Shown: positions 27,001-36,000, counted from the stretch's first letter. The stretch is DNA of 64,000 nucleotides from Escherichia coli (GCF_017348835.2 NZ_CP071375.1), one strand, 5' to 3'. Numbers: made by a program.

Positions 27001-30000
27001 AGTCCAGAAATACGTTCGATATCTTTCCACTCGGAATTGAGAACGTCACGACGTAGCTCGTCAAAGCCGACGGTATGCGTTTGAATAAATTCGTCATCCA
27101 GCAATGAGGGCCGACCTGCGGCGCTTGCAGCATCATCGCGCTCAATTAACAGGCGCATCATCCCTTTGAGCAACGCCATATCGCCACCAATGCGCACGTT
27201 ATAGTAGGCACTGGCCAACTGAGTCTCAGAGTTCGTCAGCATTTCAAACGGGTTTTGCGGTGCGGTAAATCGCTCCAGGCCACGTTCCTGTAGAGGGTTT
27301 ATGGCGATCATTTTCGCGCCCCGTTTCACTAAAGCGCGCAACGAAGTCAGCATGCGAGGGTGGTTTGTACCAGGGTTATGCCCAATGCAAATGACTAAAT
27401 CGCACTTCTCAAAGTCTTCCAGCAACACGGTCCCTTTACCTACACCGATACTCGCTGCCAAACCCACGCTTGTCGGTTCATGGCACATGTTGGAGCAGTC
27501 GGGAAAGTTATTGCTCCCGTATTCACGGGCAAAAAGCTGATAAAGAAAGGCAGCTTCATTGGAAGTGCGGCCCGAAGTATAGAATTCAACCTGATTGGGA
27601 TCACTATAGCTTTGAAGGCGTGCGCCAATTTCATCGAAAGCTTGTTGCCAGCTTAATGGCTTGTAACAGTCGCTGACGGCATCATATTTCAAAGGCTGAG
27701 TGAGTCGCCCCGCAGCCTCAAGCTCGTGGTCTCCCCAGGTAAGTAATGATTGAACCGTATTCTCAGCAAAGAAAGAGGCGTTTACCTGCTTATCCGTGAC
27801 TTCCCAGGCGATTGCTTTTGCGCCGTTTTCACAAATGTCGAATGACGCACTGTGCTTAGGATCTGGCCATGCACAACCCGGACAGTCAAAGCCCTCTGGC
27901 TTATTCATGTCAAACATGGCAATAACATCCTGGCGTATATCCATCTGCTTACGTACTGCATTCGCTACGGATTTAACAGCACCCCAACCACCGGCAGCAC
28001 CCTGGTAGGATTCAATTTTTTTCTTCATCTACTTATCCTGTGTGGAAATGAATTATTAGGATTTGTAATAGCGATGATGCACAGTACATAAAAAGGGATT
28101 ATCGCCAACATGGATATATAAGAGTAGGGGACTACTCTCTTTCTATTTTTAATCTATTATCGTTAAACAATAGATTAAATACGATAAGGTAAGCATCATC
28201 TCTCATAGTGTTTAAATTAACATATTTTTTAATATAAAAAATAAGACTCTGGCTTCAATTGTGCGCGGATTTTCTTACAGGTGTAGGATAATAGCCTTCA
28301 CAAAATAATTATCCGCGCAATTTTCGTGAATGGAGCGCATAGACTAAGGTCAAAATCACAATTATTCATAGATAAAAGTGACACCAATGACTGACTGGAC
28401 GGTTCCGGCTGAAACCTTGTTTCCTGTTTGTCCATAGGTTGCGCTTAAACCCAGAGGTACTTTGCTTTTATTTACTGTCCCCAGGGAGATATTTTCTCCC
28501 GTAGCCAGTATTTTTCCATTACGCATCAGAGAGACACCCACTCCCGATGCTTTTGTTGCATCAGATGCTGTGTTAGCAAACACTTGTCGGGCACTGTCAG
28601 TGGTGGCACCCGAAAGATAAAATGAGAGCTTTTGTTCGCTTGAGCAATATACGCCAAGGGGTATTTCTGCGCTTCCAGGAAAGTCCGGGAGATTCACGGT
28701 GACATTACGACTATCAACAGTGCAGCCGCCTGTTGGCATAACAACACTGTTATTTGAAATAATATTCCACGTAAAATTACGCGGATTTCCGCTTCCTAAC
28801 GTGGCAATTTTATACATATGAATACGGGCAATAACTTCCCCGGCTTTTATGACAACTCCACCGGCCGCCCCGACTGGGGTAATATAGAGTTTTAACGGTA
28901 ATGGCATCGGTGTCTTATCACCAATATCCAATACGTTGGTATTTGTCGTCAACGGGAAGGGGTAGGTCACACTATTCCAGTACAGCGATCCTTTATATGA
29001 CTGTAGGGAGCCTGCGAAAGCTGAGCCTTGTACCAGGTTTATATGATCAGTATCGTACCAGCCGCCGTAATCATTCCAGCAACTTATATGCTGAGACAAG
29101 TCTACAACCAGATTCTGTCCCGGCTGTATTACAGGGTCGAGATTAACATAAACAGAGGTTGTACCTGCTCCAATACTTGACCCGCCATCGACATTACAAC
29201 TGAAGGCAAAAACTTTGCCTGCCATTAATAGAAGATAAATACCGAACAGGACCTTTATACTGATTGTTTTACCCATGATATATCCTAAGGTTAAAAAATT
29301 GATTTAAAAAGAAGGCTAAGAAAATCGAATCGACGTTATTGCCAGGTGTAGATCACATTGATTAGCGCCTCGATCGTTCCCTGGCTTGTGTTTCCATTCA
29401 CCGTGATAGCTCTTGCCTTAAGTGGAAACTGTGCATTACGAGTGATCTCATCAACAATAACCGTTTTGCTATCGCCATTTTTTAACGTCGCATCCTGGTC
29501 ATCCCTCAGCTCTATCTGAATATTTTCGGCAGTACCTTCATTTTTGTAATAACCCGTATTGTCAGTTGAACCTGTCACGATTGCCGTCACTGCACTTGTT
29601 TCAGCCGGACAATCGGTTAATGACAAAGTAATATTGTGCCAGCTAGATGCAGAACCAGGTTGTTGCAGATTGCGCGTATAAAGATCCCCGAGATTAACGT
29701 TAGCTTCTTTGGTTTGAATAGTGCAGGGTTTAGCGACTACCCGACCATTAACAGTGATAGTGACATCGGCGGCCTGGAGAGTTGCTGTGAATAACGCGCA
29801 AAACGTAGCTAACAGGAACCTCTTGTGAAGTCTTTTCATATCTGACTCTGATTATTGAAATTCAAGGGTAAAGGTTGCCGAAGCCCTCACCAGTCCCGGA
29901 TTGACGGACTTCTGAGTTGACTTCAGACGAGCGGAGTAAGGCAAAATATTGTTCTGTTCTGGTACCAGTGGGATCCACTGCATCCCGGCATGAAGGTCAT

Positions 30001-33000: not shown

Positions 33001-36000
33001 ACCTGATGCATACGATATGCCTTAAATGCGGCACGAAAGGCTGTCATTATTAATTCCGATTGAGTTTATTATTAATTAGGTCACTGGCTTACTGCATGGT
33101 TGCCTTAATACGCGGAGTTAATGCACCGTAATCATTGATCGTCTGAAAACTGATATCCCCGGTTGCAGCATGCGGGATATCCACCGATACTTCACCTTTT
33201 GGCGGCACCATGGTGTTTGGGAGATTGCTATTTCCTGCTTTCATATTTGTTACGGTAATGAAGTAGGGCGTTGGATTAATAAGGGTGAGTTTGCTACCGC
33301 TGCGACGAAACCGAAGCATTGCAGGCGCTTCTTCAGGTGCCATTGCCAGGTTCGTGGGGCGATAAAACATTTTTATGCGGCTAATAATTGCCAGCTGTAA
33401 TGTATTCTCATTCTTCTGGTCTTTTTCCATAGCAGGAATAGCTTTAACATTCACCCAGAACAGGCTTTCACGGTCGCCTGGTAACTGATGATTAGTGGCA
33501 TTGATTATCCGCAGCGTATTCTCTTTTTTACCTTGCATGGAAAAAAGCGGTGGGGTAATGACAAACTGGGTGTCTTTTTGGTCACCTGCATTTTCTATCC
33601 ATGACTGAATGAGATAGACACTGGCAGGATCATTATTCGTGACAGGCAATAAAACCTGTTTCTGGTTTGCCGGATAAATTACCCGCGTCGCACCCAGTGC
33701 GACAGCTGCGTTGGCAACGGTGCTATGGCAAGCAAAGAGCAATAAAAGTAACACTGTCGCCATAAAGGAAATAGAGTAGGGGGTACGCGTAGTTTGCATC
33801 TGATGCATTCTCCATGTGTTAAGAGGATAAGCGGGAAAACCGTTACATCAGACAATCGATAAATGTTGCTAATACATTGGCGAGTCGCCGGGTTTCCAGA
33901 CTTAATGCGTTTGTAATAAATGTTGGTTCTCTTTTAATAGGAAAACCTTGCTACAAAGTAAATATTTTAAATAACAGTAAGTTTAACTACTGTTGTTTAT
34001 TGATAGTTTAGATATTATGTGATTTTTCATAGCGCTCCAAATACAAACCACTCCTCATTAATAATGAGATTCACATTGGTGAATTGCTCGGGTGTGCGTA
34101 GCCATGCCACACACACCCTGTTTCAATTTCAGATGACGTATAGCCACCTTAAGATTGAATTATAGATATTGAACCTTGAAGGTCGCATCTGCGTTTGCAG
34201 TACCAGCTACGGACTGCCCGAGTGCAATATAACGAGCCTGGAACGGCAGTATATTCGTGCCATCAATCAAGTCAGTTTTAGCGCTAAAAGTGGCACCATC
34301 AAGTATTAATACCTCACCCGTACGGTCCAAAATTTGGATACCGACATTTTGGGCAGAGCCTGCCGCTGAACTCTGCAGCGCTAACGTATCGTCATTACTG
34401 GTGACAGTAGTACCCAGGAATGCAACAGCTGCATTACTGGAAACATTGGTATCACAATCATTCAGCTTGATATTGAAGCCAACGGCGGAGCTGAGGTCAC
34501 CCGCTTTAGCCAGGCGAGAAGAACGAACCTGACCCAGCTCAACCGTTTGGTTCATTGATTCTGAATCAATCGCACAAGCGGCATTTACCACTTCACCTTT
34601 AAAATGAATAACACCGCCATTAACAGTGGTCGTTACTGATTCATCACCCTCGCCTGCGCTTACCGCAGCAGACGACATCGCCAACACAGAAACGACAATC
34701 ATACCAACATGTTTGAGTTTCATAATTCTCCAAAATTTATATTTAAGTAGCTGAATAAAGAGAGTTAACAATTAAGTCATTCTGTTATTGCTTATAAAAC
34801 AAGAATCATTCTTGATTGGTTGTTGCCCTGAGAATATAGTTTCCAGGATTATTACATTTCACGAAGAACGAGAATATCTTTAAATCACAAGGACACCTAA
34901 TCACAACAAGTTTATTGCTGCACTTGTTGAAGAGAGTATTTGCAAAAATATTTTATGTCGCTAAATAACATAACGATTTCATTATGCATGTTATTTATAA
35001 ACCGTGACTAAACAGAATATTATTGCGAACAAGGGAAGTGTCAGGAAAGGTCAAGGGCTACTAATGGTTTATATGGCTATAAATCATTAGCTATAGTTAA
35101 TGTTTGCCTGGTGTAACTAACACCGAATTGCTCTAAACAGATAAGTGCAGGGTTTATTAAAGCTGACCGACAGACTTTCTTAACCTGGTAATATCTCTCT
35201 TAGGTGACTCTCCAAACATCTGCAAATATTCCCGGCGGAAATGGGATAAGCTTTCGTAACCGACAGCATAGGCTGCTGTGGTGACATCGTAATGTTCATT
35301 CAGCATCGTTCGCCTGACTTCATTGAGACGTAGCCATTTCTGATACCGGAGTGGACTCATTCCCGCAAGCTGCCTGAAGTGTTGATGGAAAGAGGGCGTG
35401 CTCATTTGCACGCGGTTTGCCAGCTTGAGTCTTCAACGCTGGGAAGATGCGGCAAACGGCAAATCGGCATACCAGCCAGCCTATATCCGTCATGCACAGG
35501 CCAATTATGAAAGAGGAGAGGCTTAAGTTCTGGAACCCTGAACGAATAACGAGCACCGGAAAATCACTTCGTATCACTCAGATGCTATTTAACATAATAT
35601 ACATTATGCGCACCAATATAAACCAAGGGAGAATCTAGTCGTTGGCGGTCATGATTGTCCTGCTCATTAACAACGACCAAACCCCATATCTTACTCTTAC
35701 TTAATACCGTATTCCCGGCTTAACCGACCGTGCAACCTCAACACATTGGTTTCAACTGCCGTCACCACGTTCTCTGGAAAATCTGTCGGTAATGAAGTCT
35801 TCACGTTATCCAGTGCTGCCGGAATCATTCTGGCAAAGTCACTCAGGATTTCATGCATCTGCACTTCCGGGAATCTCAGCACCTTTGCTGTCGCCAAAAA
35901 ATGTCGCGGATAAATTTTATCGATTGCCGTTTTTTTGCCTTTGGATGCGTTAAGCCCCATTGCCAGTTTGAGATCGCTGATGTGTATTCCCGCGCCACCC

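Follow-up and report, generated by a model that had tools for sequence, protein, structure and literature searches.

The window analysed here, 64,000 nt of the Escherichia coli sequence NZ_CP071375.1 (GCF_017348835.2), carries between 28362 and 34723 six co-directional genes on the minus strand; their products are a major subunit, a chaperone, an usher of 883 aa, a pair of minor subunits and an adhesin with two domains. Downstream of the six genes lies ydeP (25749-28028), and remnants of hipA and hipB are found upstream from 35697 onward; a chromosomal site between ydeP and hipBA has been described for the f9 operon (Wurpel 2014; PMC3966885). The NCBIfam models name the six open reading frames, in the same order, as FimA-like major subunit, FimC-like chaperone, usher, FimF-like, FimG-like and fimbrial protein, while the RefSeq annotation of the locus in the near-identical strain PE164 labels three of its genes fimA, fimF and fimG. 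Table 1 compiles the features of the locus and their coordinates.

Table 1. Features of the fimbrial locus and its surroundings, in window coordinates.
Feature	Position	Strand	Description
ydeQ, FmlH tip adhesin	28362..29276	-	304 aa; signal peptide 1-24, lectin domain ~25-184, pilin domain ~185-304
ydeR, FimG-like minor subunit	29336..29839	-	167 aa; NF052363 (FimG) 254 bits, cut-off 220
ydeS, FimF-like adaptor minor subunit	29852..30382	-	176 aa; NF052362 (FimF) 239 bits, cut-off 200
Usher gene (fmlC; intact form of K-12 ydeT), outer membrane	30396..33047	-	883 aa, full length
Chaperone gene (fmlB), periplasmic, PapD-like	33089..33799	-	236 aa (RefSeq start 33799); alternative ATG 33808 gives 239 aa
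Conserved hairpin	34090..34118	-	13-bp stem, 3-nt loop; 42 nt after the major-subunit stop
Major subunit gene (fmlA / f9 major subunit; RefSeq fimA)	34160..34723	-	187 aa with signal peptide
Operon 5' leader	34724..34974	-	251 nt, AT-rich; putative H-NS binding region, as published in CFT073
f9 promoter	34981..35010	-	-35 TAGTCA (35010-35005), 18-nt spacer, -10 CATAAT (34986-34981)
AraC/XylS-type regulator, C-terminal fragment (yneL / ECs2114 / Z2199 equivalent)	35157..35426	-	pseudogene remnant; f9 neighbour
Interval deleted in E. coli K-12	31623..34901		3279 bp; usher codons 1-475, chaperone, major subunit, 178 nt at the 3' end of the leader (34724-34901)

The frames called for the usher, ydeS, ydeR and ydeQ genes are those of Table 1, and the first two frames were called from alternative starts, at 34160-34771 (203 aa from a TTG) for the major subunit and at 33089-33808 (239 aa) for the chaperone. 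For the major subunit, the start is most likely the ATG at 34723, which has a GGAG 5 nt upstream, and not the TTG at 34771, because the NCBIfam alignment begins at residue 17 of the TTG frame and RefSeq gives the gene 564 bp in PE164. The locus therefore ends at 34723; the extent originally predicted, 28362-34771, keeps its first coordinate and loses its last.

The products match the parts of a chaperone-usher system. The major subunit scores 173 bits against NF011741 (cut-off 140), and its residues 31-186 align to FimA structures, with the donor-strand segment included. The chaperone scores 259 bits against the FimC model, and the whole mature protein aligns to the FimC crystal chain 6e14_C. 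In this alignment the motifs ATRVIYP and SRIKxxYRP, the latter in the form SRIK(M/L)(F/Y)YRP, are conserved, and with them Arg8 and Lys112 (FimC numbering), the subunit-anchoring residues of PapD-like chaperones. The usher matches its Pfam domains from end to end (PapC_N 1-146/146, Usher 1-549/549 and PapC_C 1-66/66) and the FimD structure 6e14_D with 1167 bits. Over their full lengths, the closest solved structures to the proteins of the operon are FimA, FimC, FimD and FimH. Each of the six proteins has a recognisable signal peptide, as the original prediction had held, and in 4/6 the mature N-terminus coincides with the first residues of the crystallised homologues.

The corresponding operon of uropathogenic strain CFT073 is experimentally functional. 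The six proteins are equal in length to the products of c1931-c1936, have no indels and are 97.4-98.3% identical to them, with 4, 4, 23, 3, 4 and 8 substituted residues in the major subunit, chaperone, usher, YdeS, YdeR and adhesin; in the first five of these, 183/187, 232/236, 860/883, 173/176 and 163/167 residues are shared. At the nucleotide level, BLAST returns one colinear segment, 24001-35136 at 97.0%, in which ydeP is included and which breaks off 20 bp before the AraC remnant. Aligned with four other intact loci, the six genes contain no internal stops, frameshifts or indels. The claims that six intact frames of canonical length make up an F9-type operon are thus borne out, and the frameshifts in the usher or chaperone that might have been overlooked do not appear in the alignment with CFT073. 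Against four other lineages, dN/dS is 0.03-0.25 in five of the genes and 0.25-0.45 in ydeR, where the changes number only 5-11. The operon is intact in its genes, orthologous to F9, conserved in its binding pocket and promoter, and under purifying selection.

The adhesin is of the FmlH type. Its two Pfam domains are FimH_man-bind, the FimH-type lectin, and Fimbrial, the pilin. The lectin domain is identical to the FmlH crystal structure PDB 6AOW at 159/160 positions, the sole change being N78S in mature numbering. The structures and ligands of FmlH have been described together with its galactose-contacting residues (PMC5866590), and F1, Y46, D53, K132, N140 and R142, which we checked one by one against that list, are all present. 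Both N78S and the 23 usher substitutions occupy positions outside the published binding loops. A mannose-specific FimH was considered for this gene and ruled out, since its lectin domain scores far higher against FmlH (360 bits) than against the FimH lectin-domain chains (~125-135 bits).

CFT073 (c1931-c1936), UTI89 (fmlA-H) and O157:H7 (Z2200-Z2206, the ECs2113 region) carry these six genes, identically ordered and at the same site, as F9/Fml/Yde. Within the operon, the window differs from CFT073 by allelic substitutions only, and the mapped f9 promoter is the same; the upstream regions differ, since in CFT073 an insert with an SDR oxidoreductase, a LysR pseudogene and an esterase replaces the AraC-like fragment. 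The window shares with EHEC the layout of AraC-like fragment followed by hipA, although its own hipA has a further break, due to a remnant of an IS3-family element.

With type 1 fimbriae (fimAICDFGH) the operon has in common the gamma-1 architecture and the logic of donor-strand assembly, and it differs from them in lacking fimB/fimE, the invertible fimS and fimI. The galactoside pocket of the FmlH adhesin is wide and shallow, whereas the mannose pocket of FimH is deep, and control is exerted by H-NS and temperature in F9 but by phase inversion in type 1 fimbriae. No recombinase gene lies within 8 kb on either side of the operon, and the promoter is a fixed one, colinear with its non-invertible counterpart in CFT073. 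Membership of the fim operon, which the RefSeq labels had suggested, was rejected for the missing recombinase and switch and for the FmlH-type adhesin.

Taken together, the canonical gene order, the full-length usher domains, the two-domain adhesin, the orthology with CFT073, the position between ydeP and hipBA, the conserved pocket and promoter and the low dN/dS indicate that the region is very probably orthologous to the chaperone-usher operon for F9 (Fml/Yde) pili of E. coli and intact. Among chaperone-usher systems, F9 belongs to the gamma-1 clade and is paralogous to type 1 fimbriae. As in the rest of the family, it would be expressed as one transcript, silenced by H-NS, and would carry FmlH at the pilus tip to bind beta-galactosides.

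The control region could be compared with an experimentally mapped one. In CFT073, 5'-RACE placed the f9 promoter at a -10 CATAAT and a -35 TAGTCG separated by an 18-nt spacer, with transcription starting at a G 251 nt before the ATG (PMC3966885). The promoter in the window aligns with it base for base, except for TAGTCA in place of TAGTCG, and the G at 34974 lies exactly 251 nt ahead of the A of the ATG at 34723, from which we infer by homology that transcription would start there. The TAGTCA variant is common to K-12, PE164, AR13438 and PNUSAE145745, and so it is not a private lesion. The third base of the transcript, at 34972, is a T that is absent from the seven other strains examined. A generic promoter scan found 19 sites where 18.6 are expected by chance, one of them coinciding with the published promoter; at this chance level, our promoter call rests on the homology to CFT073. 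The GC content falls to 0.37 across 34500-34999. The 251-nt leader matches no Rfam family, and a scan of 27500-38500 returned only the ALIL frameshift pseudoknot of the IS3 family. The fold of the leader is not unusually stable relative to shuffled sequence (z = -0.23), which gives no evidence for a structured riboregulator.

More structure was found within and beyond the coding region. The intergenic fold that holds the hairpin at 34090-34118 has a z of -4.5, and the core of the hairpin is conserved in six other F9-carrying loci, AR13438 differing at the outer stem. No U-tract follows it, and, from the precedents of pap and fim, we infer that it may stabilise or attenuate the major-subunit transcript. 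Downstream of ydeQ, a generic terminator scan, whose counts equal those expected by chance, found no canonical terminator on the minus strand; the spacer between ydeQ and ydeP is itself strongly structured (z = -4.5).

Expression conditions, H-NS control, order of assembly and ligand would follow the work published on CFT073, UTI89 and O157. H-NS binds the leader region of f9 in CFT073 and represses the operon, and CFT073 makes F9 pili at 20 °C, with F9 barely detectable at 37 °C (PMC3966885). By analogy, a single transcript would arise from the conserved sigma-70 promoter ~251 nt upstream of the major-subunit gene, its AT-rich promoter and leader being silenced by H-NS at 37 °C and relieved at ~20-28 °C. 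The six products would be exported by Sec; the FimC-like chaperone would cap each subunit by donor-strand complementation; and the FimD-like usher would polymerise first the adhesin YdeQ/FmlH, next the adaptors YdeR and YdeS, and last the rod of major subunits. The FmlH lectin at the tip would recognise terminal beta-galactosides, which are Gal-beta1-3-GalNAc or GlcNAc in the inflamed tissue of bladder and kidney and galactosylated xyloglucan in plants. Glycan binding by F9 (PMC3966885) and xyloglucan binding by the F9 system (PMC7766294) have both been reported.

It could be argued that the operon only looks intact, being cryptic and either never expressed or unable to assemble pili as a result of missense changes or changes in the promoter and leader. 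Even CFT073 gives a barely detectable F9 signal at 37 °C (PMC3966885), the usher allele carries its 23 substitutions, the +3 base of the transcript is strain-specific, and several pseudogenes lie in the neighbourhood in this strain, including hipA::IS, ddpA and an autotransporter. We consider this unlikely, given that each of the six genes has a dN/dS well under 1 in the comparison with four lineages, that all Pfam domains are complete, that the pocket and the promoter hexamers are conserved, and that the -35 variant is shared by other strains. The source strain is closely related to PE164, a pig isolate, and judging from its sequence it is probably capable of making F9 pili. Such pili bind beta-galactoside glycans, in other strains they contribute to chronic urinary-tract infection and to colonisation of the calf gut and plants, and they are a target of galactoside anti-adhesives.

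The AraC-like fragment was originally read as a sign of decay in the regulation of the locus. A full AraC/XylS regulator has ~250-330 aa, with an N-terminal sensing or dimerisation domain and a complete C-terminal double-HTH domain. The frame found here has only 84 codons (35157-35411), extendable to 90 (35426), and falls short of such a regulator. Its match to the AraC-family models is confined to their final 70-76 positions (250-316/321, 204-279/284 and 200-269/278), the same-frame sequence upstream of it contains many stop codons, and RefSeq describes it in PE164 as 'missing N-terminus'. The HTH remnant predicted is therefore real. There is no support, however, for reading its truncation as the loss of a regulator of the operon, since all the genomes inspected have the gene in fragmentary form (PE164, K-12, PNUSAE145745, O166:H15, AR13438 and O157 Z869) and is absent from CFT073, which expresses F9.

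That the fragment is or was a dedicated f9 regulator, whose loss of the N-terminus has changed the control of the operon, is accordingly very unlikely. It does share the strand of the f9 promoter and lie immediately upstream of it, with an open frame over most of the HTH_18 domain, and the authors of the O157 Sakai study treated ECs2114, the equivalent frame, as a putative regulator; their reporter, however, showed minimal activity (PMC7766294). Among the 120 matches listed (49-157 aa) there is no full-length relative, the listing being biased with respect to length, which limits what can be concluded from it. In some strains the fragment bears further, independent lesions, such as a frameshift in K-12 and a premature stop in AR13438. 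Both CFT073, where homology stops at window position 35136, and A1.S1.126 lack it with the operon intact, and F9 in CFT073 is still regulated by temperature (PMC3966885). Relative to the O166:H15 copy, ~8 amino-acid changes among 14 nucleotide differences suggest near-neutral drift, and in that strain the fragment adjoins a 7.5-kb oxidoreductase island, a likelier former target. Published control of f9 is by H-NS and temperature, and Wurpel et al. found no evidence tying the upstream putative regulators to it (PMC3966885). We regard the fragment as a neighbour of the f9 operon. More speculative still, and highly improbable, are the ideas that the strain-specific +3 base alters silencing by H-NS, or that the HTH fragment at 35157-35411, whose frame is open in many E. 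coli lineages, acts as a stand-alone DNA-binding peptide that modulates f9 or its neighbours in the EHEC-type layout.

The intact F9 operon is not peculiar to this strain. In 3561/5426 complete E. coli genomes the locus is present in one piece at 80% coverage or more, a criterion that counts coverage and not intact frames, and at least part of it occupies the same chromosomal site in 5414/5426. In the literature, f9 is intact in 60% of genomes and 61-80% of isolates, and its disruption is typical of phylogroup A (PMC3966885). The intact state is real but ordinary, the majority state of the species in about two thirds of sequenced strains; the contrast drawn with the decayed locus of K-12 is correct. 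The GC content of 0.42-0.46 in the operon, against 0.49-0.54 in adjacent ydeP, raised recent horizontal acquisition as a genomic island in place of ancestral E. coli DNA, but with the locus species-wide at one site and the annotation listing neither a tRNA nor an integrase nor flanking repeats, this is scarcely credible and was rejected. Earlier publications already cover the operon and its distribution, as well as its decay in phylogroup A and the variability of the region upstream.

The analysis, of small practical value and opening no new question, also gives exact coordinates for the K-12 deletion. The edges of the deletion were obtained by BLAST of the window against MC4100, in which two alignments meet at position 6522 of L002, together with alignment and the K-12 annotation. 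At the same site, K-12 (ydeQRS-ydeT-yneL) retains ydeQ, ydeR and ydeS at 97.6-98.9% identity, the promoter followed by the initial 72 nt of the leader, and the AraC-like fragment, which is frameshifted. Of the usher, a 408-codon ydeT fragment is left, in agreement with the decay stated in the original prediction. The sequence indicates that the K-12 locus is a deletion derivative of the F9 operon, in which the missing 3279 bp make pilus assembly impossible; MG1655, far from being identical to the window at this locus, shows the same pattern of matches.

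On its minus strand (28362-34771) the window carries an intact F9 (also Fml or Yde) chaperone-usher operon of six successive open reading frames, whose lengths and NCBIfam families are compiled in the table below. The usher contains three complete Pfam domains (PapC_N, 1-146 of 146; Usher, 1-549 of 549; PapC_C, 1-66 of 66), and the protein of the sixth gene has a FimH-type lectin domain followed by a pilin domain. The original prediction had described a complete six-gene operon here, and the reading frames, the families and the usher domains all agree with it. The signal peptides that it claimed are readable at the N-terminus of all six proteins, and in four of them (adhesin, chaperone, usher, major subunit) the predicted mature protein begins where crystallised FmlH, FimC, FimD and FimA, respectively, begin. 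The start of the major subunit is almost certainly the ATG at 34723, which gives 187 amino acids; GGAG lies five bases upstream of it, the NCBIfam alignment starts at residue 17 of the frame counted from TTG, and the gene measures 564 bp in the RefSeq annotation of a near-identical genome. RefSeq places the chaperone start at 33799 (236 amino acids).

Features of the F9 locus and of the disrupted hipA gene in the window
Feature	Position	Strand	Assignment or remark
Gene 1, 203 codons (from TTG)		minus	FimA-type major subunit; NCBIfam 173 bits, cut-off 140
Gene 2, 239 codons		minus	FimC-like chaperone; NCBIfam
Gene 3, 883 codons		minus	Fimbrial usher; NCBIfam alignment spans 872 of 877 model positions
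Gene 4, 176 codons		minus	FimF-type adaptor; NCBIfam 239 bits, cut-off 200
Gene 5, 167 codons		minus	FimG-type minor subunit; NCBIfam 254 bits, cut-off 220
Gene 6, 304 codons		minus	Fimbrial protein; NCBIfam
-35 TAGTCA	35010-35005	minus	Equivalent of CFT073 TAGTCG
-10 CATAAT	34986-34981	minus	Same as CFT073
Inferred transcription start, G	34974	minus	Exactly 251 nt before the ATG, as in CFT073
13-bp hairpin	34090-34118		42 nt past the major-subunit stop
HipA N-terminal piece	36519-36899
HipA C-terminal piece	35697-36167
IS3-family remnant between HipA pieces	orfA 36167-36493; ALIL frameshift pseudoknot 36096-36212		Pseudoknot: Rfam 88.9 bits

The six genes are orthologous to the F9 operon of the uropathogenic strain CFT073, in which F9 pili are visible by immunogold electron microscopy at 20 °C and whose cloned genes c1931-c1936 yield pili (PMC3966885). 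All six gene lengths are exactly equal in the two strains, protein identities are, in gene order, 97.9, 98.3, 97.4, 98.3, 97.6 and 97.4%, and no indel or stop was found in any of them, usher and chaperone included. A single BLAST segment runs from ydeP across the operon and its promoter up to 35136. In the adhesin, 159 of 160 lectin-domain residues are identical to crystallised FmlH (PDB 6AOW and ten related entries); the sole change, N78S in mature numbering, falls in none of the three binding loops (residues 10-15, 44-53 and 132-142; PMC5866590), and the galactoside-contacting F1, Y46, D53, K132, N140 and R142 are all kept. Five of the genes have a dN/dS of 0.03-0.25 when compared with four further lineages whose operons are intact, and ydeR, with only 5-11 changes, has 0.25-0.45; these values indicate that the six sequences evolve under purifying selection rather than drift.

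The operon is flanked by ydeP (25749-28028) and hipBA remnants, and the published position of f9 is between ydeP and hipBA (PMC3966885). E. coli PE164, isolated from a pig in China, has an essentially identical 7.6-kb region; over all 64 kb the differences between PE164 and the window amount to seven substitutions, two small indels and a deletion of 1488 bp in hipA::IS. The spacer between ydeQ and ydeP (28029-28361) is strongly structured (z = -4.5), with one long stem and two hairpins (one perfect, of 14 bp; the other of 8 bp), and probably includes the operon terminator and the ydeP control region.

The statement that the K-12 locus is decayed proved accurate. K-12 MC4100 lacks 31623-34901 (3279 bp), and MG1655 shows the same match pattern. 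The deletion takes usher codons 1-475, the chaperone and major-subunit genes and the 3' 178 nt of the leader (34724-34901); still present are the promoter, the leader's first 72 nt and the 408-codon ydeT usher fragment. The loss in O157:H7 Z869 (L004 7731-9219) is different in kind, since a deletion from within ydeP to within the AraC-like fragment upstream removes the entire operon. Some part of the locus is present in 5414 of 5426 complete E. coli genomes, and in 3561 a single site covers 80% or more of 28100-35700, a figure that measures span and not intact reading frames. Published surveys put the intact form at 60% in a set of 42 genomes, 61% in ECOR and 80% among UPEC isolates, and found the locus disrupted in every phylogroup A genome examined (PMC3966885). 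Taken together, these counts and surveys make the intact operon the usual condition, with the K-12 form a derived minority. The call is correct and unsurprising, the operon being one already described, here in its common intact form.

The promoter is also conserved. In CFT073, Wurpel et al. mapped the f9 transcription start to a G that lies 251 nt ahead of the start codon and follows a promoter whose -35 TAGTCG and -10 CATAAT hexamers are 18 nt apart; they also showed that this region is bound by H-NS (PMC3966885). The TAGTCA variant of the window is common to K-12, PE164, AR13438 and PNUSAE145745. The only substitution relative to PE164 within 24100-36109 is at 34972, position +3 of the inferred transcript; its coding-strand base is T in the window, C in PE164, K-12, CFT073 and three others, and A in O166:H15, so the site is polymorphic. 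The leader is AT-rich (GC 0.37), has no Rfam match and folds in no unusual way (z = -0.23). The core of the hairpin behind the major-subunit gene is kept in six other strains, with AR13438 differing at the outer stem; its role may, as in pap and fim, be to increase the amount of major-subunit message relative to the rest. A fim-type phase switch was ruled out, as no recombinase or invertible element occurs at the locus.

Upstream, an 84-codon frame at 35157-35411 (90 codons to 35426), preceded by many in-frame stops, aligns with AraC-family models over no more than their final 70-76 positions. The remnant noted in the original prediction is thus real, but its reading as decay of the operon's regulation fails as an inference. 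The fragment is absent from CFT073 (and A1.S1.126), yet CFT073 expresses F9 dependent on temperature and H-NS (PMC3966885); it is truncated in all genomes inspected (PE164, K-12, PNUSAE145745, O166:H15 JNE21-009, AR13438 and O157 Z869), with an extra frameshift in K-12 and a premature stop in AR13438, and none of the 120 matches listed exceeds 157 amino acids. The equivalent frame in O157 Sakai, ECs2114, had minimal reporter activity (PMC7766294), and Wurpel et al. state that no evidence ties the variable upstream regulators to f9 (PMC3966885). The copy in O166:H15 differs by 14 nucleotides and about 8 amino acids, which looks near-neutral. In O166:H15 a 7.5-kb oxidoreductase gene block lies between the fragment and hipBA, and owing to this adjacency the fragment may be the last trace of the block's regulator.

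Strains differ greatly in what lies between the f9 promoter region and hipBA. The JNE21-009 block (L010 1710-8960) contains a carboxymuconolactone decarboxylase-family gene, a quinol monooxygenase, aldo/keto reductases, amidohydrolase fragments, a DJ-1-like protein and a LysR regulator; CFT073 (L005 13637-15610) has an SDR oxidoreductase, a LysR pseudogene and an esterase, and the window has the AraC-like fragment alone.

From family membership and published work, the fixed promoter would drive transcription, silenced by H-NS at 37 °C, with the silencing relieved near 20-28 °C (PMC3966885). The six products would be exported by Sec, the chaperone would cap each subunit through donor-strand complementation, and the usher would polymerise FmlH, then YdeR and YdeS, then the major subunit. 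The pilus tip is predicted to bind terminal beta-galactosides, namely Gal-beta1-3-GalNAc or GlcNAc and galactosylated xyloglucan (PMC3966885, PMC5866590, PMC7766294). What the sequence itself shows is intact genes, orthology, a conserved binding pocket and promoter, and purifying selection; residual doubt chiefly concerns expression and assembly of the window allele.

Among the neighbouring genes, hipA is destroyed (35697-36899). Relative to PE164, a further 1488 bp comprising part of hipA and most of the IS is missing (junction 36108/36109), and this exact deleted form was found in one piece in none of the complete genomes of the collection. Directly upstream is hipB, apparently undamaged; it would encode an orphan antitoxin. 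At 12569 in gadB the window is two bases shorter than PE164, whose copy is annotated as frameshifted, so that the window copy reads through; ddpA (about 2460-4010) is interrupted by a stop at codon 203, as in the PE164 annotation. Upstream of hipB, a large autotransporter gene of the ECSE_1600 family (about 37375-40500) differs from the PE164 copy (L012 3654-6750), annotated as frameshifted and split, by a 1-nt indel at 38901.
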